DNA from: a virus
Reading direction: 5' to 3' (one strand)
DNA: 64,000 bases
IMG/VR virus record: IMGVR_UViG_3300045988_128829
Location: 85,817 to 149,816 of that record
Shown: positions 31,577-64,000 of the stretch, in pieces
Numbering within the stretch: the first letter of the stretch is position 1
Layout of the letters: every line of letters begins with the position of its first letter
Program-made: the position numbers and the translations under genes
Notes under the pieces: generated by a model
Databases searched by the model: none
What the model saw: the letters and a program-made list of their open reading frames with translations, nothing else
Told to the model about the DNA's origin: nothing

Positions 31577-32083
31577 ATGAAGATTTCAAATAGGGATGGG
31601 GTAAATCCCTCGCTTATAATCAATAAAGGCATATACATCCAACATGTAGATGGAGGATTATATACAAAAGAAAATTGGTCTAATAAAGGATATTCCAATG
31701 ATCTATGCAATGGAATAGCTCTTGTAGATAAAGTGTGTTTTGTTATAGCCACCGAATATATTGGCACATTTCGTTGGGGTAAGGATGGAGAAATAGACAA
31801 TATATTTGCACAAGATAGTTCTCATATGGGAACTATTAAAAAGGATTATTGGGGGCGTGAAAATCAGAATGCGTATCTTGAATATATTTCTATTCCTTCT
31901 ACGGTAGACAACCCTTTTCTTTTTCCAGAAAAGGACATATCCGTACATGGGCTGCCGGCTAAAATAAGATCTATGTGTCCAAGATCTTCTACATTCAAAT
32001 CCCTTACATCTCCTACTTGTATAGTATTAGGGAAATTTAATTGCGTTTGTTTAATAGCAAACTTATCTATTTCTGATGCATAA
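31577..32083 (+). CDS. hypothetical protein (168 aa)
   Basis: Last ORF of the + block before the convergent junction. Confidence 0.5.
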   Translation: MKISNRDGVNPSLIINKGIYIQHVDGGLYTKENWSNKGYSNDLCNGIALVDKVCFVIATEYIGTFRWGKDGEIDNIFAQDSSHMGTIKKDYWGRENQNAYLEYISIPSTVDNPFLFPEKDISVHGLPAKIRSMCPRSSTFKSLTSPTCIVLGKFNCVCLIANLSISDA

Positions 32084-50602: not shown

Positions 50603-51058
50603 TTAGTTTTGAATTAATGTGAAAAGAGCAATTATAGCCGCAACTGATATAATAGATAAAATAACGTTTGCCAATGCATGCTTTAAGAGGCGCCTTTCGA
50701 GATTTGCGATATGCTTTCTTAGTCCTTCGCAATGTTTTTTTGTAGATCTGGATTCTTTGAGTTCTTTGTTGTATTTTACCATATTTTTGTCGCACCATTT
50801 CATTATATCAGCACTTGCTTTGTTAAGCATATCTCTGATTTTTTTATCATCATAGAATGGTATTTCAACACCAACACAAGTATATGGACTGTATAATAAT
50901 CCGTATGTATCAAAGCACACTTTCAATGTGACAACTTCAGGCTTAGCCATTTCTTCGGCTTGTTTCTTTATCTGCTCATCTGTTGCTTCGGCTTTAGCTT
51001 TAAGCTCATTGTAGTCTTCTATATTCAGCAAAGCCATGTTTTCAAATTCTGTATTCAT
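50603..51058 (-). CDS. hypothetical protein with C-terminal TM anchor (151 aa)
   Basis: ORF. Confidence 0.5.
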   Translation of the reverse strand: MNTEFENMALLNIEDYNELKAKAEATDEQIKKQAEEMAKPEVVTLKVCFDTYGLLYSPYTCVGVEIPFYDDKKIRDMLNKASADIMKWCDKNMVKYNKELKESRSTKKHCEGLRKHIANLERRLLKHALANVILSIISVAAIIALFTLIQN

Positions 51059-51256
51059 ATCTACTATTTCTTATTTAGAGTGAATGTTTGCCAAATGCTT
51101 TATCCCAACGCCTGTTTGCTATCTGTACACGTACTACCAACGCATCACGATATTTACGGGATTAGATGGTTCTTATGTGGCGGATGTTGGTAATCCTAAC
51201 AACGCATTCGTACTGATTTTTGCAAACTGTTCATTCAATTATTATTTAATTATGTA

Positions 51257-52141
51257 TTATTTATAATCCTGATATGCACAGCTTTTAAATGCTGCTTTCA
51301 TATTGACCCACCGGGCAAAACGTCTTTGTTCGGCTGTAGGTGGTATGTTTGTGTCCAAGTCCCGGTATGCCATAGCAAAAGGGACGCATCCTAATCGATC
51401 AAGATATAAGGCTCTTCTTTCGGCATCTTCGATTTGCCCATCCTTTACAAGCATATAGAAAAACAACTTCCTGCCAGGGATCCCAGCTTCTTTCAAGTAA
51501 GCGATAGCTGTTTCCACTTCGTCTGTTATGGCAGAGTGGTCATAAGCCATCCTTATAAACTTAATCCACCTTACACGTTTTAGCAGCTTAGCAATTGATT
51601 TATCGCGAGCTATAAGCCTGCAATCTATCCCTTGATTAAAGTCTACTTTTACTTTGAGCGATATGATCTTCTCTATCTGTTGTAGTCCCCAGTCGGATGC
51701 GATCACGTTGTTATCCATCAATATCGCCGATTTACGTCCGTCCAAAAATTCTGTGATGTCAGAATGTTTCCGGATCCCACCTTCTTTACGAGGAACGATA
51801 CAGAAAGAGCATTTGTTTACACATCCGCGAGTAAGAAAACCATACGCTTCCGGGAACATTGGATATAGCGAGTAATCCGGGCATATATGTTCAATGTCTT
51901 CCGGTAACCATTGATCGAACAACTTGTATCCAGATCCACCTCTTACTACTTCATCGGCTTGTATTACCCTTTCTTCATCCAACGTAAAACCAAAAACTTT
52001 GCTAAGATAAACCCGATCGTAATAATCGATACCGGTATACCATTCTACCTGATCTCCTTTCGCCTTATGATAGGCAGACAACTTCATCAGTGCCAGGTTA
52101 GGGTAATGATGTCCGTCAACATCAATCATTCCAATCTTCAT
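51257..52141 (-). CDS. radical SAM domain protein (294 aa)
   Basis: CxxxCxxC cluster (GCVNKCSFC). The N-terminal Rossmann/B12-binding-like region starts MKIGMIDVDG. The ATG at 52141 is preferred over the upstream start of the ORF track. Confidence 0.65.
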   Translation of the reverse strand: MKIGMIDVDGHHYPNLALMKLSAYHKAKGDQVEWYTGIDYYDRVYLSKVFGFTLDEERVIQADEVVRGGSGYKLFDQWLPEDIEHICPDYSLYPMFPEAYGFLTRGCVNKCSFCIVPRKEGGIRKHSDITEFLDGRKSAILMDNNVIASDWGLQQIEKIISLKVKVDFNQGIDCRLIARDKSIAKLLKRVRWIKFIRMAYDHSAITDEVETAIAYLKEAGIPGRKLFFYMLVKDGQIEDAERRALYLDRLGCVPFAMAYRDLDTNIPPTAEQRRFARWVNMKAAFKSCAYQDYK

Positions 52142-52165
52142 GATCTCACATTTATTTAAGTTGTT

Positions 52166-52189
52166 GCTCCCGACATTTGAGACGGGAGC
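52166..52189 (-). other. perfect 7-bp hairpin (GCTCCCG/CGGGAGC) in the leader of the radical SAM gene
   Basis: Inverted repeat with a 10-nt loop between the stop at 52199 and the start at 52141. Confidence 0.35.
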
Positions 52190-52198
52190 AAACAATAA

Positions 52199-52597
52199 CT
52201 ACTTTTTCATTAATTCAATGCGGGTTCTTAAAGTCAATAAATAGTCGTGCATTTCGATTTTCTGCTGCTCCATCAGTGCTACTTGCATTTCACCGGCTAT
52301 TTCAACTGCTTCTTTTCGTCCAAGGAACAATACCAATTTATTATACTTTTCCATCAATTCATTGTATTCAATACACATACGATCAAGAGGAGTTTCGGCC
52401 ACTTTGTATGCTCTTTCAAACACATCTTTTGGTGACCAGCTTTCATATCCATCTTCGTAACGAACGTGATAACCTTGCTCGGTTTCTTCATGGTTATCAA
52501 TACTCTTGCCATAGGGGTTTCTACCCGTTTTTTGGACGAAGTCACCTAATGTCATCGCTTCTGCCTCAATAAGTTTTGTCCCAATATACTTTTTCAT
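52199..52597 (-). CDS. hypothetical protein (132 aa)
   Basis: ORF. Confidence 0.5.
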   Translation of the reverse strand: MKKYIGTKLIEAEAMTLGDFVQKTGRNPYGKSIDNHEETEQGYHVRYEDGYESWSPKDVFERAYKVAETPLDRMCIEYNELMEKYNKLVLFLGRKEAVEIAGEMQVALMEQQKIEMHDYLLTLRTRIELMKK

Positions 52598-52653
52598 ATT
52601 ATATTACGGTTTGCCTATACACCATAAGGTTCTAATTACAATTTATTTAAATA

Positions 52654-52869
52654 TTATTTTAAATCATCAATTTCATAACTCCAACTCATCGCATCTTTTT
52701 CTATGATGTTATCAGCAAGCCATCCAGCTGCAATGGAATCTTCAGGAACTTCCCACGCTCCGCTATCGTAGTTTTCTATTAGATCATCATATACTTCTTC
52801 TGGAACTTCTATATCCTCTAAGCCTACTGTGTAAGTAACCGTTACGGTCAAATTCTTTATAGTTTTCAT
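52654..52869 (-). CDS. small acidic protein (71 aa)
   Basis: ORF. Confidence 0.4.
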   Translation of the reverse strand: MKTIKNLTVTVTYTVGLEDIEVPEEVYDDLIENYDSGAWEVPEDSIAAGWLADNIIEKDAMSWSYEIDDLK

Positions 52870-52882
52870 GACTCAATTATAT

Positions 52883-53110
52883 TTAGTTTGTTTTTTGGGC
52901 ACTCCAAACATTATAATCAGATTCAGGCAATTCAATAATATTCAAAATTACAATCTCAGCATTTTCACATTCAAGTGTAGATGCTATCTGCTCTATTGCT
53001 ATCTGTCTGTTCAGGTAGCATCCATCCGTCACAAAAGTGGTTTGCCCAGAACCATGTACTTTGCCATTGCCAAAATTGTATGACACTATGAAATATCTTT
53101 TTCCGCTCAT
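52883..53110 (-). CDS. hypothetical protein (75 aa)
   Basis: ORF. Confidence 0.45.
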   Translation of the reverse strand: MSGKRYFIVSYNFGNGKVHGSGQTTFVTDGCYLNRQIAIEQIASTLECENAEIVILNIIELPESDYNVWSAQKTN

Positions 53111-53126
53111 ATTTTTTTTAGTTGTG

Positions 53127-53291
53127 TTAGTTCTTATTGTCTTTTACTACAATAGCACATGTAACCATCATTTCGACAGAGACGACAAGAAGTCCAAGCC
53201 AAAAATTGATTTTAAAAGCCACTTCAGCCAAGACGGCAAGAAACAATATGTAACCAGCCAGACCTATTAAGCCAAAAATTTTTTTATTCAT
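53127..53291 (-). CDS. small two-TM membrane protein (54 aa; not in the ORF track because it is under 60 aa)
   Basis: The ATG at 53291 lies 2 nt after the HAD stop. MNKKIFGLIGLAGYILFLAVLAEVAFKINFWLGLLVVSVEMMVTCAIVVKDNKN. Its orientation fits the operon better than the + ORF 53037..53270. Confidence 0.4.
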   Translation of the reverse strand: MNKKIFGLIGLAGYILFLAVLAEVAFKINFWLGLLVVSVEMMVTCAIVVKDNKN

Positions 53292-53293
53292 AC

Positions 53294-53668
53294 CTATACT
53301 TTATTCAGATTCTCCTTCCATTTCTTTTCCTCATTCGTTATATATTCATAAATCTCCGGCCAGGTAGGCAGACCGCCCACCTGCTTGTCATCGATGTAGC
53401 AATGGGCATAAATCTTGCGGGGATCATCGCCATAGCGAGCGAGGTTCTGCGGTTCATGGGCATTGATGCGGTCAAAGGGGATACCTTGCTCCAAGAGCCA
53501 GTTCAGAGCATCCTCCAGCCGCTCACCCCGACGACAGGTCCATAATATAATGTAATGGCCATCGTCCTTCAATTTGTTCATCATCTCTACCGCGTATGGT
53601 TTGGGATTCCCGATTTCAGGATAGGGCCCCATTGAGAGGGTTCCGTCAAAATCAACTGCAATAATCAT
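53294..53668 (-). CDS. small HAD-superfamily phosphatase (124 aa)
   Basis: N-terminal DxDGT motif (VDFDGTL). GC-rich codons, except the last ~20 codons, which are AT-rich (composition junction). Confidence 0.65.
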   Translation of the reverse strand: MIIAVDFDGTLSMGPYPEIGNPKPYAVEMMNKLKDDGHYIILWTCRRGERLEDALNWLLEQGIPFDRINAHEPQNLARYGDDPRKIYAHCYIDDKQVGGLPTWPEIYEYITNEEKKWKENLNKV

Positions 53669-54231
53669 ACCCCGTCCTCCATTTTATTGGCTGCCTTGAT
53701 TTCATACTTGTCGTAATAGACCCGTTCACGGTCGGTGAAGCAGCGGTCTGAGATCAGGTCGAGAAGCTTCATGAAGTTCAGCTCATTGCCGACGCGCAGG
53801 TCGGCTCCCTCGAAGAATACCCTTACGAACTCACGATAAGCCTTGATGGCACGGATCAGCTCTCCCTTGCGGTGTTCCCATTCGGGGACGGGCTTGAAGC
53901 CCCGGTCGCTGAAGTAGGCAAAAAACATCTCGATATGATAGATCGCCAGGTCGGCCTCGTTGAGCGACAAGTGCAGGATCTTACCGAAAAAAGCCCGTTC
54001 GGCTCGATCCATATTGCGGTTGTCGTCGTGGAACTGTTGGTCGATCCGGGAGTCTTCAAGCTCCTTTTTCAAATGTGCTATGCGCTGCATGGCCTGCTGA
54101 TGGCGGGCGTAGTTCCGGTTTCGGAGACAGGAGGCGGCATCATTCATCGCCTCACGCAGCTCCTGCTCGATCAGAAAGACCGGGCGGCATTTGTGCCGAT
54201 TGGCGGCACAGGATTGTTTCTTCTTTTTCAT
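53665..54231 (-). CDS. hypothetical protein (188 aa), Mu-like early region
   Basis: GC-rich ORF coupled to its neighbours. Confidence 0.55.
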   Translation of the reverse strand: MKKKKQSCAANRHKCRPVFLIEQELREAMNDAASCLRNRNYARHQQAMQRIAHLKKELEDSRIDQQFHDDNRNMDRAERAFFGKILHLSLNEADLAIYHIEMFFAYFSDRGFKPVPEWEHRKGELIRAIKAYREFVRVFFEGADLRVGNELNFMKLLDLISDRCFTDRERVYYDKYEIKAANKMEDGV

Positions 54232-54232
54232 C

Positions 54233-54775
54233 TTAAAATAATTTAGGTTCTTTTGATTCGTTGATATACTCCAAAAGAAGGTAGTCCAACTGTTGTACCT
54301 CCCAGTTGATGCCGGGGCGGTTCCGATAGAGGTTACGGATCAGCCGTCGGCATTCTTCGGGCATGAGGCCCGAGTCGAGCTTCGCCATCGGGAGGTTGAT
54401 ACGGTCGAGTGTGATGGTCGAGGCTTGCAAGATTTTCGCATTGCCTTTCCATATACCTTTCAAATAGATTTGCTTCACTGCCCCGATGGCATTCCTGACC
54501 GGATGATGCAGGCGGATCGTCGTGAAACAGCGGCAGTTCAACTTGCCATTGAAGTTCTCTTCAAATTCCAATCGTTCGTCCATGACTTTGTAATATTTTC
54601 CTGTTTGTTGTTTGCATTTGAAACAATAGACCATCCACTTGTTCGAAGTCCTCACCACCCGGCAGACGGTGTACCTGAAACCACAGGGGCAGACGTATAT
54701 CCAGCGACCGGGGGTGAGGGTAGTGGATTTTACCCGTTTTACAGTCGGTTGAACGACGGTTCGAGTTTCTTCCAT
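54233..54775 (-). CDS. Cys-rich/zinc-binding hypothetical protein (180 aa)
   Basis: CPCGFRY...CFKC and CRC motifs. Confidence 0.55.
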   Translation of the reverse strand: MEETRTVVQPTVKRVKSTTLTPGRWIYVCPCGFRYTVCRVVRTSNKWMVYCFKCKQQTGKYYKVMDERLEFEENFNGKLNCRCFTTIRLHHPVRNAIGAVKQIYLKGIWKGNAKILQASTITLDRINLPMAKLDSGLMPEECRRLIRNLYRNRPGINWEVQQLDYLLLEYINESKEPKLF

Positions 54776-55383
54776 ACGCCCATCTTGTCTTTCTCGAAGA
54801 AATAGAAGTTGGTCGCCGTCCCTTCGACCAGGTGTGACTCCTTGAAAAGGTTCATGATCGCGGTATATTCGGGATCATCGAACTTATCTTCCAACTCGTA
54901 GAGTTTCGAGATCGACTTATAGTCGAGATCACCATACTTGTTGCGCTCCAAAAGCGTCATCGCCAACTGGTACATCGGGTCGTCGCTTCCGGCATCCTTA
55001 CCCTCGATCCACTGCTGCAGGAACTCGATCAGGCGCGAAGCGGCGATATCGGCACGCTCATCAAAACGTTTCACTTTGTTTGACCTCACTTCGATACGGA
55101 AGCACCCCTCCTGGACGGTGAACGACATCTGTCCCTCGCGGCGCAACTGGCCGTACTCGGCGAGCACTTGGCGGAACGCTCCGATTTCATCCACGCAAAA
55201 AGCGTGCAGCCCTTTCACTTCGTCGCACACGGAACGCACTTTGTTTTCAACTTTCTGTACTAATTCAGCACGGATGCCTTCATAGGCGGCACGTTTGTCC
55301 AACGCCTGGCGGTGTTCTTCTTCTCTCTTTTTTGCCAATAATGCTTCTAAATCTTTACTTGTCAGTTTGCTTAAATCTTCCAT
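54739..55383 (-). CDS. coiled-coil hypothetical protein (214 aa), Mu-like early gene
   Basis: GC-rich ORF in an operon with the A/B genes. Confidence 0.55.
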   Translation of the reverse strand: MEDLSKLTSKDLEALLAKKREEEHRQALDKRAAYEGIRAELVQKVENKVRSVCDEVKGLHAFCVDEIGAFRQVLAEYGQLRREGQMSFTVQEGCFRIEVRSNKVKRFDERADIAASRLIEFLQQWIEGKDAGSDDPMYQLAMTLLERNKYGDLDYKSISKLYELEDKFDDPEYTAIMNLFKESHLVEGTATNFYFFEKDKMGVWKKLEPSFNRL

Positions 55384-55401
55384 GATTTTTTGATTTATGA
55401 A

Positions 55402-55653
55402 TTATGAATTTGATTTATGTTTGTATTTCATGTATTCGCTACGGAGAAAGGTAAGCGACTGTTCAAGTTGCTCGATCTCCTCTTCCCATTCGCGAAGCAG
55501 GCGGCGCTGTGCCTCCATGTCGGGTGTGGCGCGTGTGAGCAGCATATCGGCAAGAAATGCTGCGTCGTCCTTCAGTTTCTCCTGCCGGCGACGGATCTGC
55601 CGTCCACGCCGCTCGATCTCTTCCAGTTTGTCCTTTATTGGAATGTAACCCAT
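55402..55653 (-). CDS. small coiled-coil protein (83 aa)
   Basis: ORF. Confidence 0.45.
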   Translation of the reverse strand: MGYIPIKDKLEEIERRGRQIRRRQEKLKDDAAFLADMLLTRATPDMEAQRRLLREWEEEIEQLEQSLTFLRSEYMKYKHKSNS

Positions 55654-55659
55654 AGCTCC

Positions 55660-56154
55660 TTAGTTTTTGCCGACAGGGTGGTCCAGTTCAGGGTTACCCT
55701 CTATGCCTACGCTGTTGCGCTTACGATAGAGGTTGTAGATGGCTGTCAGTTTGTCGTCCGGTATTGCGTTGAAGTTGCCGCAATTGGCCGCCCGACAGGC
55801 GATGCCTTTCACATACATCAACTTATGCCGGTCGTCACGAAACTTGTAGCCCAATTTGTCGACCCACTGGCAGATGGCGGCGATCACCCTTTTGGCAGAC
55901 CGGTCGCGCCGCTCCTCGTAGGCCATCAGCCTCTTTTCTCCCTTGGGCTTCATCGCATCGATCATCCGACTGTACTCCGACGGATAGTTCTCATACATCT
56001 CGTTGAGCGAGGTGGTACGCCCACCGCTATGTTCATGTACGATACCCTCCTTGATCACTTCCTTGTAACAAGGATCGTAACCCGGCGTTTCCTTCAACAA
56101 AGTCCAGAAGAGGGCGTGGGAATGTTTTTTCGTTTGTCTCTTGGTTGTTGCCAT
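55660..56154 (-). CDS. hypothetical protein (164 aa)
   Basis: Internal ATG at 56154 (MATTKRQTKK...) of track ORF 55660..56493. The longer N-terminal extension would overlap the next gene by 320 nt in another frame. Confidence 0.55.
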   Translation of the reverse strand: MATTKRQTKKHSHALFWTLLKETPGYDPCYKEVIKEGIVHEHSGGRTTSLNEMYENYPSEYSRMIDAMKPKGEKRLMAYEERRDRSAKRVIAAICQWVDKLGYKFRDDRHKLMYVKGIACRAANCGNFNAIPDDKLTAIYNLYRKRNSVGIEGNPELDHPVGKN

Positions 56155-56173
56155 ACTGTATTGTTTCTGAATG

Positions 56174-56812
56174 TTATTTAACTTGATCAAAATCCTGTCC
56201 GTAGTAAAGAACTGCCTTCTCCTCCCAGATGATGAAGGGGTGCGACTTCTGTCCGTGGTCAAGGTAACGGCTGGCAGCCACGGCACGGAAACCCTCCACG
56301 TAAATCTTGCACGAACAGTCGTAACGGATGCTGTCGGCCACACCACCCTTGGGGTTCTTGCCGTCGGCGTGACTGATGAAGATGAAGAGCTTACGGGGGA
56401 AGCGGGAACGCAGGTCGCGATAGGTATCGTAGTCGATGCGGGCATATTGCAAGGAGTCGATGATAACGATATCCCAACTCTTCGGCTTTGCAAGTTTTTC
56501 TACCATCTCATCGAAGTTCATGTCCAGGAGCACCACCCGTCCGTTCACTTCCATCATTCCGGCATCCTGAAATGAACGTTGCAGTGAGAGGCTGTCGCCC
56601 TCCTCCAACGAGAGGTAGGCGACACGGCCGAACTCGGCGAGATACTTCGCCAGACGACAGGTGAAGGTGGTTTTCCCTGATCCCGACTGTCCCCAGATGA
56701 TCCATGCGCCTTGCGGTTCGGGACGGCCCAGCAGATGATAGAACGACCCGCTGAAATCCATTGCCTTTTTCCTTTCCTGCAGGAATTGTTTTATGCCTAA
56801 GATCTTTCCCAT
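56174..56812 (-). CDS. P-loop NTPase, RecA-like/AAA_24-type (212 aa)
   Basis: Walker A GQSGSGKTT and Walker B IVIIDSL. Confidence 0.6.
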   Translation of the reverse strand: MGKILGIKQFLQERKKAMDFSGSFYHLLGRPEPQGAWIIWGQSGSGKTTFTCRLAKYLAEFGRVAYLSLEEGDSLSLQRSFQDAGMMEVNGRVVLLDMNFDEMVEKLAKPKSWDIVIIDSLQYARIDYDTYRDLRSRFPRKLFIFISHADGKNPKGGVADSIRYDCSCKIYVEGFRAVAASRYLDHGQKSHPFIIWEEKAVLYYGQDFDQVK

Positions 56813-56814
56813 CG

Positions 56815-57747
56815 CTACATCTGTCCGAATTGGTTAGCGATCTGTTCACGTTTCACGAGTCGCATCAGCCGGCGCAGGTCTTCGCAGAAAAACAGGTTCT
56901 TCTCCTTGGTCTCGCCCCGTTTGTTGGTTACTTTCACGTAGCGCTTGATCTTGTCAACCTCGTTCCAGATACGGTCGGCGGTGGCATCGTCCAATCCGTT
57001 GGCGGTGCAGATTTCCTTTACATCCTGCTCGGTGGCTCCGGGTAATTCGATGTAGCTGCGTCCCAAGCGGCTGTCGATTTCGTCATAGCCTTTGGTGTTG
57101 TTACGCACACCACGGGCGATCTCTTTATGCAGGTTCTCCGTACCGGCAAGCACACAGCCCAAACGGTGCTCGGTACGGTTGTAGAGGGGGATCAGCTTGC
57201 GGAAGGCGGCCGGCTTCAGCTTGTCGGCTTCATCAATGATCAGTACCGGGTGATCACCGGCCATACCGTTGAAATATTCCGCTATCATCTTCAGCAAGGT
57301 AGGAATATCGGTATAGCCTCGCTTGGGTACACCGCAGGTGCGTTCGGCCAGCTCAACGAGGAACTGCCTGGAGTTCCACTCCTCTGCCTGGATGAAGACA
57401 ACCGAGCCGGTGAGATCCTGGTTGAAGAGGTGTTCCAAGGTTTGTGTCTTGCCACTTCCCGCCTTATTCGAGATTGCCATCCACAAAGCCTGCTGCTTGC
57501 AGGAGCGGTAAACAAACTCGATCTTGCGGTAGTTCTGGATGGTGGTCACCACCTGCCAACCGTCTTCCTGATAGCCTAAAGTGGAGGCGATGCGTTTTTC
57601 CAGCTCGGCGCTGTTCGCGCCGTACTTCCCGTTCATCCATTGGCTAAGGGCGGTACCTGATATACCACATTTCTCTGCAACCTTACTCTGTGATCCAAGC
57701 CGGGTGATCCAGTCACCTACGTGTTTCAATAATCCGTTTCTGTTCAT
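56815..57747 (-). CDS. MuB-like transposition AAA+ ATPase with N-terminal HTH (310 aa)
   Basis: N-terminal HTH (SKVAEKCGISGTALSQW), Walker A NKAGSGKTQ and Walker B VLIIDEADKL. Size and architecture match MuB/TniB. Lies directly downstream of the DDE transposase. Confidence 0.75.
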   Translation of the reverse strand: MNRNGLLKHVGDWITRLGSQSKVAEKCGISGTALSQWMNGKYGANSAELEKRIASTLGYQEDGWQVVTTIQNYRKIEFVYRSCKQQALWMAISNKAGSGKTQTLEHLFNQDLTGSVVFIQAEEWNSRQFLVELAERTCGVPKRGYTDIPTLLKMIAEYFNGMAGDHPVLIIDEADKLKPAAFRKLIPLYNRTEHRLGCVLAGTENLHKEIARGVRNNTKGYDEIDSRLGRSYIELPGATEQDVKEICTANGLDDATADRIWNEVDKIKRYVKVTNKRGETKEKNLFFCEDLRRLMRLVKREQIANQFGQM

Positions 57748-57771
57748 ATCGTGTCTGTTTTTTTATATCGT

Positions 57772-59847
57772 TTAAAAATCATTTAAAAAGTCGCTGTAAT
57801 CATCACTGAAAGTGAAATCGTCCTCTTCGTTTGTGATCTCTTCCTGCTTTGGAACTCTCGGCAGGACGATCGGTTCCTTACGCCCGGCTACTTCGTTGCG
57901 TACATCCTTATGTCGGCCCAGCGAGTCGGTGATCACGTGAGCAGTGAGGGTATTCGACAGGTCCTCGTTCTCTTCAAACAGCTCGCGGACGATCTCGCCG
58001 CTGCGGGCACGTTTCAGAACGATGTCATCCACATACTCCTTGTTGAAGTTGAACACCCGGTGCAGCTGTTCGGCATCACCCTCCTCACGATCTTTCAGCG
58101 CCATAGGCTGTTCGTACTTGCGTTCGAGGACGAACCTCACGCCGCCCTCTTTCGGTTCTTTCTGCGTACCGATATTCTCGACAGCGATCACCCGGTCCAT
58201 GTCGGAGGGATCGTATTTGAGGAAGAAAGTCGTGTGCCCATAACTGCGGAACTCCTTGTCGAAACATTCATACTGGAAACGATGACCGCCCACCTGCAGA
58301 TGCACGCCATCACCCCTAAGCGGGCGAGGAGCAGCTGTCTCGCCAAAAGCCAACAGGAAGTCTTCAGGGGCAAACAGCTGGCGGTCGGTTTCGGGAAGAT
58401 CGATCCACCGGTTGATGTATTCCTCGCGCTTGGTGGCGCGGTCGAAATCGATCATCTTTACCAACTGCCGGCAGCATCCTTCGAAATCGGGGAAGTCACG
58501 TTTGTGAGTCTCGATCCAGTCATCGGACACTTGCAGCTTTTGGCGGCTCTTCACGCCGTGGCCGCTGCTGTTGGGCAGAAGGCGCAGCCATTGCCGGTTG
58601 AACTGGTTGAAGAAAGGTTCGATGATCTTCGACTTTGCGTTTTTTACAGCTGCCGGAGTGTACCAGTGGCCGACCGCTTCGTAGAAACACTTCAGATGGC
58701 CTCGGCCGTAATTGTCGGTCTGCACTTGCCAGGGCTTGAAATAAGATCCGAACAGCTCCTTCACATGCTCGAAGGCGTTGCGGAAAGCCTGGCGGATCAG
58801 TGCGGCCGACTCGTGGCGACCGATGGCATAACCGATGATGTATTTGTTGAAAGGATCGACAATGGCAACGACTGTGGGACGATGATGGTAGGTTGTAACG
58901 CTTCGGCCACGACTGTCAGTGGCACGTGCCTGGTAGAACAGTTCCGTATCCCATCCGTCGACACACCAGAAGTACATCGGCGCAGTGGGGGCCGTACGTG
59001 TCACCTGCATCAGCTTGTTGTTGGCAAGTGCACTCTTTCCGTAGCGTCCGGCATAACATTCGGGATGTTCCTTGCGGTAGTTGGCAACGGTTGCACCGGT
59101 GATAGGTTTCCAGTTCATACGACCGGCAACGGCATTGTAGAGCCGTGCCACCGTCTCGTTGTCGATGTTGCGTCCGTCACCGATCAGTTCGACGATCAGT
59201 GCCTCCTGGCGGCTCTCTTTGTTCTTGCGGGCGTTGTTGTTCTTCATCTTGCCGCTGATCAGACTCTCGTAACCCTCCTCGCTGTACTTCAGGGCAACCC
59301 TTTTCAGCGCAAGATGGTTCTTGGGCAGGCGACAGCCGACGACATCCTGTATCTCGTTCAGCTCACGGCTGGTCTCCGGCCAGACGCGGTTGTAGGGTTT
59401 GCCGTATTGCTTGATGAAGAGCGAACGGTTGCCCGTCAGCTCCAAGACGGCGTTCAACGCCGAAGCGTTGGCAACGTACAACTCGACATATTCCGGCTTC
59501 AGGTGGTCGTGCGGACGCCCCTCGAAAGTCCAGCCTCGGAAGAACTGCTCTGCCATCGGATCGCGTCGGATCATCTCTTTCAGCACATAGCGTTTCGGTT
59601 CGGTTTCGAAAGTTTCCCCCTTGCGGGCTTCCACCTCCTGCTTGACGCTGTCGGGCAGGGAGGCATAAAGAACCAAAGCGGGCGTACCGTAACAGGCACG
59701 GTTCAGCACCTGCAGTTTGCCCGTCTTCTTGTAATATTTGAAGTTGGACTCCGACAGGATCGGCCGTTTCAGCGGATCAACCGCCAACGGATCGCCTGCC
59801 GTCAGCTCAGCGTATGATATGCACAGTTGATTCTTGTAGAATTCCAT
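57772..59847 (-). CDS. Mu-like DDE transposase (MuA/TnsB-type, rve integrase core; 691 aa)
   Basis: DDE triad context (WCVDGWDT ... VQTDNYGRGH ... IEPFFNQFNRQW), size near MuA, followed by a MuB-like gene. Confidence 0.8.
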   Translation of the reverse strand: MEFYKNQLCISYAELTAGDPLAVDPLKRPILSESNFKYYKKTGKLQVLNRACYGTPALVLYASLPDSVKQEVEARKGETFETEPKRYVLKEMIRRDPMAEQFFRGWTFEGRPHDHLKPEYVELYVANASALNAVLELTGNRSLFIKQYGKPYNRVWPETSRELNEIQDVVGCRLPKNHLALKRVALKYSEEGYESLISGKMKNNNARKNKESRQEALIVELIGDGRNIDNETVARLYNAVAGRMNWKPITGATVANYRKEHPECYAGRYGKSALANNKLMQVTRTAPTAPMYFWCVDGWDTELFYQARATDSRGRSVTTYHHRPTVVAIVDPFNKYIIGYAIGRHESAALIRQAFRNAFEHVKELFGSYFKPWQVQTDNYGRGHLKCFYEAVGHWYTPAAVKNAKSKIIEPFFNQFNRQWLRLLPNSSGHGVKSRQKLQVSDDWIETHKRDFPDFEGCCRQLVKMIDFDRATKREEYINRWIDLPETDRQLFAPEDFLLAFGETAAPRPLRGDGVHLQVGGHRFQYECFDKEFRSYGHTTFFLKYDPSDMDRVIAVENIGTQKEPKEGGVRFVLERKYEQPMALKDREEGDAEQLHRVFNFNKEYVDDIVLKRARSGEIVRELFEENEDLSNTLTAHVITDSLGRHKDVRNEVAGRKEPIVLPRVPKQEEITNEEDDFTFSDDYSDFLNDF

Positions 59848-59876
59848 ATCGTTCCGTTTTTAGAAATTTATCATTG

Positions 59877-59958
59877 TTCCCGGAAGCGGATTCGAACCGC
59901 TGACCATATCGCCTGAATTACCAGTTCCGATTGTTCTGCCTGACTGAACTATCCGGGA
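59877..59958 (-). tRNA. tRNA-like element, possibly tRNA-Thr(GGU) with atypical spacer lengths (82 nt)
   Basis: Perfect 7-bp acceptor stem (TCCCGGA/TCCGGGA), D arm GTTC-AGTCAGGCA-GAAC and T arm AGCGG-TTCGAAT-CCGCT. Candidate anticodon loop CT-GGT-AA has U33 and A37, but there are 3 nt before the anticodon stem and an 11-nt variable region. Confidence 0.4.
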
Positions 59959-60019
59959 TACCACCCTCGTACCGCGGGCCGCGTACCGATGCTAAACCAA
60001 AACCAATCTTAATTGAGAC

Positions 60020-60256
60020 CTAAACCGATTGTTTATCCTTGTCGCTGCCACCAAGCAGCCGAACCATCCATTCTTCGAAACGGTCCAACTCGCATAAGCA
60101 AGCCGCTTCGTTACCGATCAGCATGTAGCTGAAGAAGAACCAGACCGAACAGAGCAGACTTCCCGCCAGTATGCTGCCATGTTCCATCGTTCCGATTCCG
60201 GCAAACAGGAACAGCCAACTCAATGCCCATCCGTAAAGTATCACCTTCGCCTTCAT
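60020..60256 (-). CDS. small membrane protein (78 aa)
   Basis: ORF with two TM helices. Confidence 0.45.
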   Translation of the reverse strand: MKAKVILYGWALSWLFLFAGIGTMEHGSILAGSLLCSVWFFFSYMLIGNEAACLCELDRFEEWMVRLLGGSDKDKQSV

Positions 60257-60268
60257 AATTCTCCATTG

Positions 60269-60643
60269 TCAATTACCCAGTTGTGCCTTTGCCAGCATCT
60301 TGGTTTCAATCACGAGAGCGGGATCAGTCAGTTCCATCCAGCCGAAGCGTGTCTTCAGCAGCCGGTCTAACACCGCCCAGTTCTCCAAGCTGACGCAGTC
60401 GTTGTAGTTGTACCACTGCGTTTCGCCTGTCTTCGTATCCAACCCGGTGATTCCCCAGAACTCCTTACCCTGCTGCCCGATGACAACCTTACACGCGCCT
60501 TTCGCGATCACTACGCGGAACACCGGGCGTTCCTCCTCCTTCCTGCCGGTATAGACCAGCATACGGAAGTTGTCTTCATACGGCGCGTCCATCTCGAACA
60601 GTGCCTCACACAGCGCTTTGTAGTCGATTCTCTTTGTTTCCAT
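60269..60643 (-). CDS. hypothetical protein (124 aa)
   Basis: ORF. Confidence 0.5.
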   Translation of the reverse strand: METKRIDYKALCEALFEMDAPYEDNFRMLVYTGRKEEERPVFRVVIAKGACKVVIGQQGKEFWGITGLDTKTGETQWYNYNDCVSLENWAVLDRLLKTRFGWMELTDPALVIETKMLAKAQLGN

Positions 60644-60760
60644 CTTTTTCTGTCGTTTTTAGAATTATCTGTCTGTCCCGGCTGCGGTCTCGCTCCGCTA
60701 TGTGCGAGTCATAAGCTCTCTTGGCCGGGTGTAAGGGTTAGCAGTCTTTATATGTCGCGA

Positions 60761-61435
60761 TTAAGATTTCTCTTCGTCCCACTCGATGCACATCTGCTCG
60801 CAGATTGGCACAGGGTCGGGATAGGTGATACCTTGACTTCGGTTCTGCTTGGCCAGGCTGGTGATCCGTCGAACCACGTCTTTGCTGACAGATGTCCCGG
60901 CATAGACCTTGCGCACGTGCGGATAACTAACACCTATACCTTCTGCCACCTCTGCCAACTCGTTCCGGCTGATATAGGGCTTCACCCGCTGCTTCCATTC
61001 CTCGAAGAACGGGCGGTACTTCGGAAGGGGCAGGCGCTGGCGCTGTTGTTGCTCCCGCATGCACTCCGCCTCGCCCTTGATCCGATACTGCCCGGTCTGG
61101 CGGAGCTGGGGAAGAACCTCACCGGCTACCCAGTTGACGAAGGCATCCGCCTGCGGCTTATTACTCCGGAACGCCAGTTTGTAGAGGGCCGCTTCGTTGA
61201 TGACTGACAACTGTTGCACACCTCCGCCGCGATCACCATAAGAAGGGGTGTTAAAACTCATCATCCCTTTCCAATCATCTGGAATATTGGATAATGTAGC
61301 ACCGCTCCAAGCGATATCTAAAGCGTTTGCCACATCCTTGGCTACAAACCAAGGTTCGTTGTTCAGTTGCTGCGTGCGAATTGTTACGTTCGCCTCCTCG
61401 TTGTAGAATAAATTCAGATTTGTTTCCATTTTCAA
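60761..61435 (-). CDS. BRO-N domain antirepressor-like protein (224 aa)
   Basis: N-terminal BRO-N signature (NEEANVTIRT...EPWFVAKDVANALD). Confidence 0.75.
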   Translation of the reverse strand: MKMETNLNLFYNEEANVTIRTQQLNNEPWFVAKDVANALDIAWSGATLSNIPDDWKGMMSFNTPSYGDRGGGVQQLSVINEAALYKLAFRSNKPQADAFVNWVAGEVLPQLRQTGQYRIKGEAECMREQQQRQRLPLPKYRPFFEEWKQRVKPYISRNELAEVAEGIGVSYPHVRKVYAGTSVSKDVVRRITSLAKQNRSQGITYPDPVPICEQMCIEWDEEKS

Positions 61436-61453
61436 TCCTGTTTTAAATGGCTA

Positions 61454-61645
61454 TTAAATTATTTTTACGTGTTCCTCTTTTTTGACTGCCCCTCCAAGTT
61501 TGATAGCCATCGCCCGAATCTTCTTCGATAGCTCCGAATTAGACCGACAGTTCAATGCCTCGCTGACCGCTTTACGACTACACTGGAAGATTTCTTCTAA
61601 TTTTTTTCTGATTTCTGTGTCTGCTAAAATCTTTGCCATATTCAA
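61454..61645 (-). CDS. Cro/Ner-like small DNA-binding protein (63 aa)
   Basis: Short HTH-like ORF transcribed divergently from the repressor, at the head of the transposase operon. Confidence 0.5.
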   Translation of the reverse strand: MNMAKILADTEIRKKLEEIFQCSRKAVSEALNCRSNSELSKKIRAMAIKLGGAVKKEEHVKII

Positions 61646-61786
61646 TAATTAATGATTAATGATTATCTTTACAGCGTCAGTTACATTTGTAATGACGGTG
61701 CAATATTATAGGATATTTTCTAATTAAGCAAATATTTATAGGATAAATTCTATTCACAAGGTAAAAACAATTAGGAGGAACTCTAT
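61646..61786. promoter_or_regulatory. divergent promoter/operator region of the lysogeny switch
   Basis: 140-bp AT-rich spacer with tandem TAATGAT repeats, a direct repeat TATAGGATA x2 and an imperfect palindrome CGTCAGTTACATTTGTAATGACG. SD AGGAGG lies before the repressor ATG. Confidence 0.45.
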
Positions 61787-62494
61787 ATGGTTTTAAAGAG
61801 GCTAAAAGAATTTATTGACGCTAACAACCTGAGTATAGCGGCTTTTGAGAAAAGCATTGGTATGTCCAATGCTTCATTTGGCAAGTCCCTTAAAAATAAT
61901 GGAGCAATCGGATCTGATAAATTAGAAAATATTCTAAGCGTATATCCAGACATTAACCCAGACTGGCTTCTCACCGGTCGCGGCTCTATGCTGAAAAGCG
62001 AAGGGAAGTCACCCATGGGTGAGCAGGAAGCGGTTTTACCTGCCAAAAAGAACCTGATTCCGTTTTATGACGATGTTTCCACCATCGGTGGATTGAACGA
62101 CCGTGTTGCGAACACTGACCCCAACTCTCCATCCGAGTGGATCGATGCCGGTGACTGGTTCCCGGAAGCGACAGCCGCCATCCGTCACTATGGCGACAGT
62201 ATGGTAGAATACTCCAGTGGTTCTATCCTTGCTCTGAGACGGGTAAATGACCAACGATTAATAATGAATGGGCGTAACTACGTAATAGAGACCTCTGAAT
62301 ATAGAGTAACAAAACAACTTCAAGACGACGGAGACCACTTTATGGCTTATAGCACCAATCGGGAGACTTATCCGGATGGTCGCCAAATTCATGCGCCATT
62401 TTCTATTCCTAAAGATGCGATCCGGTATATCTATCTTGTGTTGGGCTGCGTGACAAAAGAGTATAGCAATGGCGCAATACAGATCAGGAAGTAA
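61787..62494 (+). CDS. LexA/cI-like repressor (N-terminal XRE HTH + C-terminal S24 peptidase)
   Basis: HTH with the WLLTG motif, and C-terminal GDSM (YGDSMVEY) plus a downstream Lys typical of self-cleaving S24 repressors. Confidence 0.75.
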   Translation: MVLKRLKEFIDANNLSIAAFEKSIGMSNASFGKSLKNNGAIGSDKLENILSVYPDINPDWLLTGRGSMLKSEGKSPMGEQEAVLPAKKNLIPFYDDVSTIGGLNDRVANTDPNSPSEWIDAGDWFPEATAAIRHYGDSMVEYSSGSILALRRVNDQRLIMNGRNYVIETSEYRVTKQLQDDGDHFMAYSTNRETYPDGRQIHAPFSIPKDAIRYIYLVLGCVTKEYSNGAIQIRK

Positions 62495-62525
62495 TAACCG
62501 GCGAAAGCCAATAAAATAAAAATAT

Positions 62526-62921
62526 ATGGAACTGAGAGATTTTATAAGTGAGACACTTATTCAGATTGTACAAGGAATAAACGATGCACAAAAAGCTCTG
62601 AAAGAAACTGAATGTGTAATCAATCCGAGAAATATAGAACAGGGAGATTACGCTAAAGCTATTATAAAAAACAAAGCGCACGTTGTTCAGGATGTAAGTT
62701 TTAATATAGCTCTAACAAGTACATCCAATTCTGAGGATAAAACAGGAATAGGCGTTATGTTAGGGTCGTTTGGCATAGGAGGAAACAAGACATCATCAGA
62801 TGGAAACACTTCAAATACAAATATATCTTTTAGTGTTCCTGTTGTATTTCCACCCGTAGACAATGGAAATATGCAACTACCTCATATTGTCATTCCTCAC
62901 GATAGGTCGTACCGTTATTGA
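62526..62921 (+). CDS. hypothetical protein (131 aa), AT-richer moron-like gene
   Basis: ORF downstream of the repressor. Ser/Thr/Asn-rich C-terminal half. Confidence 0.45.
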   Translation: MELRDFISETLIQIVQGINDAQKALKETECVINPRNIEQGDYAKAIIKNKAHVVQDVSFNIALTSTSNSEDKTGIGVMLGSFGIGGNKTSSDGNTSNTNISFSVPVVFPPVDNGNMQLPHIVIPHDRSYRY

Positions 62922-63062
62922 TATAATGAATAATATTATCAGCTTCAAACGCAGTTCGATTGCCATTAGGATTATGGTTACGATTTGCAAGCAGCCTTAG
63001 AACGATTTTCTTTCTAAGGCGCTTTTCTTTCCAGGCTTTTATTTTTGATAATACAGGTACAT

Positions 63063-63401
63063 TCATCGTATGCAGACTCCTTTCTCTTCATATTCCTTTA
63101 CTGTCGTTTCCAACTCCTCTATACGTTTCCGTAATCGGTTTATTTCCTTGAAAATAAGACGAACAAAACCGGTTCCGTCTTCATAGTGAGGAGTAGCACC
63201 TGACGACATGCCTATCAATTTCAAGTGTATGGCACAAAGAGCATGCCTATACATGGCCACATCCCGATGATCGTCAATAAGCGTCCGTATAATGTCTTTT
63301 CTCTTTACCATATTGTCCATGTCGTCCAGCGGCAAACGCCTTTTCCGATCTTTAAGTGTTTTATCAATAAAACCTTTCCAATAACTAAAACTTGCAGCCA
63401 T
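63063..63401 (-). CDS. hypothetical protein (112 aa)
   Basis: ORF. Confidence 0.45.
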   Translation of the reverse strand: MAASFSYWKGFIDKTLKDRKRRLPLDDMDNMVKRKDIIRTLIDDHRDVAMYRHALCAIHLKLIGMSSGATPHYEDGTGFVRLIFKEINRLRKRIEELETTVKEYEEKGVCIR

Positions 63402-63519
63402 AAAATACCTCCTTTTTTTGCAAATTTAGCCGTTTCCCCGGTATTATCCAACCTTGATATTAATAAAAACAAATATAACACACTATATATCAATTAAATA
63501 TAATTAATCATACCATACC

Positions 63520-63790
63520 AACCCTCTAAAATCATGGAAATACCCCCCGTCAATCACCTGTAAACCCTATCGTTTTAACCGAAATTAACCCAATACCCCC
63601 CCCTTGAACGGCTCGAAAATCATGAAAATACTATCCCCAACACTATCCCCAACACTATCTCCAACCCCAAAAACGTCCAAAAACGAAATGTATAGGTTGG
63701 GGATAAAAAAGGCGGCATTCCAGCTAAAAAAAGCCGAAATACCGCCAAAAACGGATTGAAACGGAATTGCATGTTTAAACTATTGTATTA
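63520..63790. repeat. repeat-dense non-coding region, candidate Mu-type element end/att or transposase-binding array
   Basis: Direct repeats AAAATCATGRAAATAC (63528 and 63616) and AATACCCCCC x2. Tandem 12-bp ACTATCCCCAAC x3 (63630-63665) with an inverted copy GGTTGGGGATA (63695-63705). ACGAAA/CGAAAT motifs and a GGCGG...CCGCC inverted repeat. Confidence 0.4.
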
Positions 63791-63793
63791 TAG

Positions 63794-64000
63794 CTATTTA
63801 CCACCTCTAATCAGGTGCGATTGTATGATCATTGCCCGTTTGGTCACTTTGCAGCTTCCATCCGTCATGCCGGCATGCAAAAGACTGCTTTTTGTGATCC
63901 CGATTTCCTCCTCTGTGAGGGTATCGAAGATCGCCGAAATAGACCCGAAATAGTAGTTCTTCTTCTCAAATATCAGATGTACGTGTATAACTTTCGTCAT
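63794..64000 (-). CDS. hypothetical ORF reaching the window edge (68 aa as seen)
   Basis: ORF starting at the last ATG of the window. Contains an HVHLI segment, but no convincing transposase signature. Confidence 0.25.
   Translation of the reverse strand: MTKVIHVHLIFEKKNYYFGSISAIFDTLTEEEIGITKSSLLHAGMTDGSCKVTKRAMIIQSHLIRGGK

Follow-up and report, generated by a model that had tools for sequence, protein, structure and literature searches.

Escherichia phage Mu (Muvirus) carries its repressor by one end of the genome, divergent from an early operon in which a DDE transposase (PHROG 310) is followed by an AAA+ activator (PHROG 296). Semi-essential early genes come next, then the head genes for a Mu-type portal, MuF and protease, and the far end holds a DNA-modification gene, mom. 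Several transposase-binding repeats lie at the ends of Mu, which inserts at many sites. Among gut Bacteroidales, Mu-like prophages form an established group (PMC12135933; bioRxiv 10.64898/2026.05.11.724261). We analysed a window of 64,000 nucleotides (nt) from the IMG/VR virus record IMGVR_UViG_3300045988_128829 (positions 85,817 to 149,816 of that record), in which a preliminary description, made from the sequence alone, had placed a Mu-like early region at 53,294-63,790. We conclude that window positions 50,603-64,000 are likely to be the repressor-proximal third of a ~41-kb Mu-like transposable prophage of Parabacteroides merdae. This part comprises an end region, the genes for immunity and early functions, and an accessory island. 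Positions 1-50,602 lie outside the Mu-like element and are DNA of an epsilon crAss-like phage, with structural genes on the + strand and replication genes on the − strand.

The element shares the plan of Mu. The repressor, transposase, activator and semi-essential genes are arranged in the same way, the Mu-type head genes are found in other copies of the element and are absent from the window itself, several putative transposase-binding repeats lie at the ends, insertions occur at many sites and a Dam-like methylase lies at the far end. It differs from Mu in having a BRO-N antirepressor and a host in Bacteroidota. Hankyphage p00 and related Bacteroidales Mu-like prophages (proposed 'Candidatus Mubacviridae') are alike in their size (~41-43 kb), their origin in human-gut Bacteroidales, their MuA/MuB operon, the methyltransferase at the right end and their wide distribution in metagenomes. 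The element differs from hankyphage in its host (P. merdae, Tannerellaceae) and in that the reverse transcriptase of a diversity-generating retroelement was not seen in the parts of the element that were read. Its transposase shares less than 40% amino-acid identity with that of any deposited phage: ~24.5% with Porphyromonas Mu-like phages, ~25% with the MuA-like protein of hankyphage p00 and 38%, over 94%, with the 'MuA-like transposase' of Elizabethkingia phage TCUEAP3 (OK632026), the closest deposited relative. The early genes of TCUEAP3 follow the same order of divergent regulator, small genes, MuA-like protein, MuB-like protein, P-loop ATPase and DUF3164 protein, but that phage has a 33-kb genome and a Flavobacteriales host, and its similarity to the element is far below species or genus level.

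Transposition genes, ends and host of the element

The gene at 57,772-59,847 (− strand) encodes a 691-amino-acid (aa) protein that matched phrog_310 ('transposase') with E = 8.2e-39 over residues 1-579. Beginning 25 bp past its end, a second gene (56,815-57,747, −) encodes a 310-aa protein that matched phrog_296 ('DNA transposition protein') with E = 2.9e-42. The phage Mu proteins, scanned as a control, fell into the same two families (MuA into phrog_310, 8.6e-199; MuB into phrog_296, 9.9e-118). The 310-aa protein combines an N-terminal helix-turn-helix (HTH_3) with an AAA+ domain (AAA_22, E = 2.5e-14) that carries the Walker A motif AGSGKT and the Walker B motif IIDEAD. We therefore assign the pair as a MuA-family DDE transposase and a MuB-family target-DNA activator, in agreement with the MuA/TnsB-type transposase and MuB-like ATPase of the preliminary description. 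The candidate catalytic residues of the transposase, D297, D378 and E410, were invariant in four relatives. A four-sequence transposase profile aligned end to end with MuA, with weak statistics, and placed these residues opposite presumed catalytic positions, which we take, from general knowledge and by motif, to be D269, D336 and E392 of MuA.

Other assemblies locate the two ends of the element. Ten contigs (L005-L014) share it to one precise base and then continue into ten different flanks of Bacteroidota chromosomal genes, including SusC/SusD, FecR and cytochrome bd. This repressor-side tip, ...GATTTTTCGTTTTTCTTTTTATA, corresponds to window coordinate 64,403 and so falls 403 bp outside the window, and three more flanks on this side were obtained from IMG/VR. 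The far tip, ...GATTTTTCGTTTTTAAAACTTGAATTTTTGGTTTTGCGGATTATA, lies ~41 kb from the repressor-side tip and is followed by five different flanks. A search for homologues of the Dam-like methylase, aimed at contigs with both ends, yielded one extra flank; the cluster representatives in that search were on single short contigs. In 13 repressor-side and 6 far-side copies the tips read 5'-TATAAA...ATTATA-3', and the bases just outside were variable. An inverted 15-mer, AAAAACGAAAAATCA, is common to both ends, at 10 and 76 nt from the repressor-side tip and at 32 nt from the far tip, with a degenerate copy 11 nt from the far tip. By analogy with Mu, these 15-mers are putative transposase-binding repeats. 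In one IMG/VR contig, which contains both tips with ~41 kb between them, the element is bordered by GTAT on either side. The empty site predicted from this insertion, in which GTAT stands only once, was present in 59 gut-metagenome contigs, the best with 0 mismatches in 442 nt, and the insertion was therefore precise, with a 4-bp duplication. The preliminary description had suggested looking for a matching inverted end and a 5-bp target duplication; the inverted end exists, in other assemblies and not within the window, and the duplication is one base pair shorter in the one case resolved. Within the window, the search for a second end with the end motif stayed at chance level (4 matches with 2 mismatches, 1.9 expected), and the 16-mer GAAAAACGAAAAATCA gave 109 mostly chance matches in IMG/VR, none related to the far end.

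The DNA between these ends carries the late genes of a Mu-type phage. We traced the late region through look-ups of the radical-SAM protein (encoded at 51,257-52,141) and a 151-aa protein (encoded at 50,603-51,058). L134-L136 and L149-L152 match the early region at 99.9-100% identity and continue from it into Phage_tail_S, Phage_Mu_F, Portal_Mu, Mu_Gp36, terminase and Clp protease genes, and the contigs with this late region include one 982-kb NCBI contig. Walking through IMG/VR contigs toward the far tip, we found genes for a major capsid protein, a tape measure protein and Gly-rich fibre-like proteins, and then the Dam-like methylase. The proposal of a Mu-like transposable early region is thus borne out by transposition genes in the MuA and MuB families, by Mu-type late genes in other copies and by insertion at no fewer than ten unrelated chromosomal sites.

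Proteins identical to the transposase, the repressor and the 151-aa protein are annotated in P. merdae, where RefSeq labels them hypothetical, and we therefore take P. merdae to be the host. The Bacteroidota-type context that had been proposed was right in this sense; Alistipes, Porphyromonas and Prevotella, which had been named for comparison, are not the host. Among GTDB species genomes, the transposase query found a single relative, at 63% identity, in a Parabacteroides metagenome-assembled genome, and megablast of the module against deposited phages gave no match. An exact look-up of the repressor protein returned 1968 blocks of the assembly collection. Ten long contigs among them were listed, all with the module, and in nine of these ten it differed by 1-4 mismatches in 12.2 kb. 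The element is a very common lineage that is nearly clonal across people.

Several observations weigh against a Mu-like assignment. The similarity of the transposase to MuA is detectable by profiles only: comparison of the two by hhalign gave E = 0.006 with low probability, and the Pfam rve match was weak and below threshold. The best PDB profile matches, obtained with the four-sequence profile, were to TnsB (E = 0.0035), and a single-sequence PDB search found nothing. Neither the repressor nor the first early gene is a homologue of its counterpart in Mu, c or ner; the repressor is of the LexA/CI type (phrog_4), whereas Mu c belongs to phrog_7148. The termini of the element are TA...TA, with TATA at both tips, and not TG...CA as in Mu, and the target duplication is 4 bp (GTAT, n = 1) and not the 5 bp of Mu. 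The TnsB matches, and a faint IS481 match that was all NCBIfam returned for the transposase, would fit a simple IS21- or Tn7-like transposon to which the transposase and ATPase belong, with no phage involved. This explanation is contradicted by the position of the ends, which do not flank the two genes only but stand ~41 kb apart and enclose Mu-type head and tail genes. The two proteins also fall into the PHROG families of MuA and MuB, and no TnsA, TnsC, TnsD or IstA features were found. We consider a simple transposon scarcely credible and retain the assignment to a Mu-like prophage.

Control region, early genes and variable parts

The immunity repressor is encoded beside one end of the element, divergent from the early operon. 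In the open reading frame listing, a block of leftward genes runs from 61,645 to 53,294 and faces the rightward repressor gene (61,787-62,494, +). The 235-aa product, with an N-terminal helix-turn-helix and a putative C-terminal S24 domain, matched phrog_4 ('transcriptional repressor') with E = 5.8e-17, and its match to PF00717 (Peptidase_S24; E = 1e-4, 22.4 bits) is just below the Pfam cut-off of 23.3. It carries the motifs WLLTG (residue 60) and GDSM (residue 136), together with a candidate catalytic Lys (residue 176). The BRO-N antirepressor-like protein (60,761-61,435, −) was recognized by PF02498 (E = 2.3e-19) and by phrog_130 ('anti-repressor Ant', E = 1.9e-33). Both proteins had been named correctly from the sequence. 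The first early gene (61,454-61,645, −), described earlier as Cro/Ner-like, occupies the ner/cro position, but its 63-aa product matched phrog_16858 (function not known; E = 2.8e-14) and lies outside phrog_769, the family of Ner. Solely by position, it is a candidate for a ner/cro-like role. The labels 'c' and 'ner' hold as positional analogies and not as homologies. Between the repressor and this gene lies a 141-bp divergent region (61,646-61,786), the putative promoter/operator, with two direct repeats, TTATAGGATA(T/A)(T/A)TTCTA, read from the sequence at ~61,707-61,726 and 61,737-61,755, 30 bp apart. We propose these repeats as candidate operators.

By analogy with Mu, the LexA-like repressor would silence the leftward early operon at the divergent operator, and induction, through repressor self-cleavage, the BRO-N antirepressor or both, would turn the operon on. 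The MuA-family transposase would then bind the 15-bp AAAAACGAAAAATCA repeats at both inverted ends, while the MuB-family AAA+ ATPase would deliver target DNA. The element would insert at essentially arbitrary sites with a 4-bp duplication, probably replicating by transposition, and the Mu-type late genes would then package it.

The remaining early genes are all on the − strand. Two of them lie between the transposase and the BRO-N gene and encode a 78-aa hydrophobic protein (60,020-60,256) and a 124-aa protein (60,269-60,643). Both are kept in all prophage copies and had no family match. Downstream of the MuB-family gene, a 212-aa P-loop ATPase of the RecA/DnaB-like fold family (56,174-56,812) matched phrog_6891 ('ATPase') with E = 7.1e-67 and, weakly, AAA_24/AAA_25. 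A block of semi-essential early genes follows (53,294-56,154). It encodes a 164-aa protein (55,660-56,154), an 83-aa coiled coil (55,402-55,653), a DUF3164 protein (54,739-55,383; DUF3164 E = 7.8e-12, phrog_846 E = 4.7e-35), a Cys-rich protein of 180/116 aa (54,233-54,775), a 188-aa protein (53,665-54,231) and a HAD phosphatase of the BT0820 family (53,294-53,668; NCBIfam NF046079, E = 6.8e-37); a match to phrog_14123 was also found within the block. The P-loop ATPase and the HAD phosphatase had already been listed among the further genes of the module, and the family matches support both.

The leftward block has a GC content of ~0.52, against 0.34-0.42 across most of the window, and GC climbs from ~0.36 to ~0.52 at ~53.3 kb. 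The preliminary description had taken 53,294 as the boundary of the Mu-like DNA. This proved incorrect, as prophage sequence runs on through a low-GC island to 50,603; the GC step is internal to the prophage and marks the edge of its own accessory island (50.6-53.3 kb). The island has a GC content of 0.35-0.41, compared to 0.50-0.55 for the prophage core, and its 51,257-53,291 part (−) is 99.9-100% identical to the Mu-like prophage contigs L134, L135, L138 and L150. It encodes, on the − strand, a radical-SAM protein (51,257-52,141; phrog_9298, E = 8.9e-95), a crAss001_48/Sequestin-domain protein (52,199-52,597; PF21825, E = 4.7e-13) and three small proteins (52,654-52,869, 52,883-53,110 and 53,127-53,291). 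The exact radical-SAM protein is also encoded by L137, an unrelated integrase-bearing phage-like element with an SPP1-type portal, where the nucleotide identity is 99.5% over 920 bp. This further suggests that the low-GC island is built of cassettes traded among phages. The 75-aa gene at 52,883-53,110 occurs twice in complete prophages (L134-L136, 11,531-11,774), where a copy with 98-99% identity lies immediately downstream of the cassette with the 151-aa gene.

On the other side of the repressor, the end region (62,526-64,000) contains genes for proteins of 131 aa (+), 58 aa (−), 112 aa (−) and 68 aa (−), and it carries subterminal repeats at ~63.5-63.79 kb. PADLOC, Pfam and NCBIfam gave nothing useful for the small end-region and accessory genes. 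Between 63,520 and 63,770 we found two copies of CTC(T/G)AAAATCATG(G/A)AAATAC at a spacing of 88 bp, three tandem copies of ACTATCCCCAAC and several CCAAAAACG motifs, none of them a good match to the 15-mer end repeat. This repeat-dense stretch had been put forward as the end of the element; with the true tip at 64,403, it is subterminal only. In one of the insertions, L009 (12,750-20,708), the repressor-side end adjoins genes for a sigma-70-like factor, DnaB, a Toprim primase and a PolIII alpha subunit, a flank that resembles another mobile element or phage rather than core chromosome.

Two further regions in other copies vary. Of ten long prophage contigs, eight end at 24-34 kb from the repressor-side tip, including six that do so at ~32-34 kb. 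The corresponding region (L178, 12.1-15.1 kb; ~32-35 kb from that tip) contains paralogous genes of the Gly-rich fibre-like type, which differ between copies, and it may be a variable or invertible tail-fibre region. At ~19,990-20,090 of L178, between the tail genes and the right-end methylase module, lies an imperfect palindrome of ~95 nt, GCCAATCACAT...AAAGCGACGC...GCGTCGCTTT...ATGTGATTGGC, and the sequence after it differs among prophage variants.

A shared cassette at the join to crAss-like DNA

The crAss-like part of the window, at 8-50,618, is collinear with 76,005-132,287 of crAssE-Sib (OR575929.1; PMC11054128; spelled 'csAssE-Sib' in the GenBank record), with 90-98% nucleotide identity in 7 blocks. 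To the right of 50,618 there was no match to crAssE-Sib at the DNA or protein level, generic BRO-N similarity aside, and crAssE-Sib itself has neither Mu-like genes nor the cassette described below. At 31,885/31,886, where the + and − gene blocks converge, the window lacks ~4.1 kb of crAssE-Sib (110,017-114,145), including most of a cytosine-5 DNA methyltransferase gene; L125 and L132 retain genes there.

At the junction of the crAss-like and Mu-like parts lies a cassette of ~650 bp with sharp boundaries (from 50,594/50,603 to 51,252/51,270, −). It consists of the 151-aa gene (50,603-51,058, −), whose product has a hydrophobic C-terminus and only a faint CorA-like match in PADLOC (E = 2.7e-4), and of its upstream spacer. 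It is native to a clade of crAssE-like phages, whose contigs L148 and L154-L163 have it at 98.3-99.1% identity between crAss genes on both sides. At least three variants of the Mu-like prophage (L135/L150, L149 and L152), which differ in the genes around it, carry it at 99.5-100%. BLAST and a four-way alignment showed that the window tracks crAssE-like contigs such as L148 at ~99% from the left to ~51,270, and the Mu-like prophage at 99.9-100% from 50,603 rightwards. The two versions of the cassette, ~98.5% identical, differ at 10 sites, and the window has the prophage allele at 10/10, which places the switch within the first 120 bp of the cassette. The preliminary description had stated that the late genes expected of the module are replaced by low-GC crAss-like DNA. 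This is true of the window, but the switch lies inside the shared cassette and is probably an assembly join.

One way to explain the window as a single genome would be that the whole ~150-kb crAss-like phage is a giant transposable prophage that uses the Mu-like module and has its second end far outside the window. The DNA next to the repressor-side end is indeed chromosomal and varied, the other side of the window is crAss-like, and no second end was found in the window. We rejected this explanation, which we consider very improbable, on the grounds that in the contigs read the module leads on to Mu-type late genes and, ~41 kb away, to a matching inverted end. Complete crAssE-like genomes lack the module, and the join falls at an internal shared cassette. 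Since the join is internal to the prophage and not at its end, transposition cannot have made it.

We consider it quite likely, from comparison of contigs, that the join is a chimeric scaffold, in which an assembler walked through the cassette repeat and fused two co-resident genomes. The switch occurs precisely inside the cassette that the two phages share. Over 16.3 kb the window shows 100% identity to scaffold_55 (197.7 kb) of the ENA assembly ERZ28619523 (RAYM16-1_SAMEA3182064). By its coordinates, this scaffold is made up of crAss-like phage (~122 kb), prophage (13.8 kb) and flanking DNA that is presumably chromosomal (~62 kb). The crAss-side neighbourhood is identical in layout to that of 143-155-kb crAssE-like contigs, and 22 of the 24 contigs read for the adjacent crAss-side gene were ordinary crAssE-like genomes of 50-155 kb; scaffold_55 and one look-alike were the only hybrids. 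For the prophage-side genes we found no hybrid in ~50 contigs read, all of which lead into Mu-type late genes. In other assemblies the sequence ends at the cassette: the prophage contig L138, assembled from a sister sample in the same study, stops 117-135 bp inside it, and a 137-kb crAssE-like contig stops at ~51.1 kb (collinearity assumed). Contig ends at this position are the signature of a branch point in an assembly graph. A 650-bp repeat is longer than short-read spans, and such repeats are a classic cause of chimeric contigs. Two points weigh against a chimera: a second contig with the same hybrid neighbourhood exists, possibly not independent of scaffold_55, and the complete prophage allele with a switch in the first 120 bp would be left by an assembler or by a real crossover alike.

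The join could instead be a real hybrid, in which an epsilon crAss-like genome recombined with the resident Mu-like prophage at the cassette and became integrated into the P. merdae chromosome as a Campbell-type cointegrate. About 650 bp at 98.5-100% identity would be ample for homologous recombination, the common cassette indicates that both phages meet in one host, the scaffold has no N gap near the join, and a second contig has the same hybrid neighbourhood. The authors of crAssE-Sib proposed that Epsilonunovirus may be temperate, yet found no integrase (PMC11054128). The scarcity of hybrids on both sides of the join and the contigs that end at the cassette speak against a real recombinant, as does the repeat length. 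In addition, scaffold_55 holds only ~122 kb of the ~150-kb phage and has no reciprocal junction. A junction-specific pattern, combining the crAss-side flank with prophage-type alleles, gave 0 matches in IMG/VR and JGI metagenomes; its control, which accepts either allele, also gave 0 in IMG/VR, so that these zeros carry no weight. We consider a real hybrid unlikely, and favour the assembly chimera.

Implications for the two phages

As a Mu-like prophage the element is ordinary, since Mu-like transposable prophages of gut Bacteroidales, such as hankyphage and the proposed Mubacviridae, have already been described. In mechanism it departs slightly from Mu, by its TA termini and 4-bp duplication. 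The join provides a cautionary case: through a shared 650-bp cassette, a metagenome scaffold can fuse a chromosome that bears a prophage with a lytic-type phage of 150 kb, and such a scaffold could be misread as a temperate or transposable crAss-like phage. If the hybrid were real after all, it would represent a piggy-back route to lysogeny for a crAss-like phage that lacks an integrase.

The close identity of the cassette in both phages is evidence that a P. merdae prophage and a clade of epsilon crAss-like phages have recently exchanged genes. Judged by sequence, this sharing probably implies a common host, P. merdae. In conclusion, the cassette gives a testable host hypothesis, P. merdae, for an epsilon crAss-like clade that has no cultured host.

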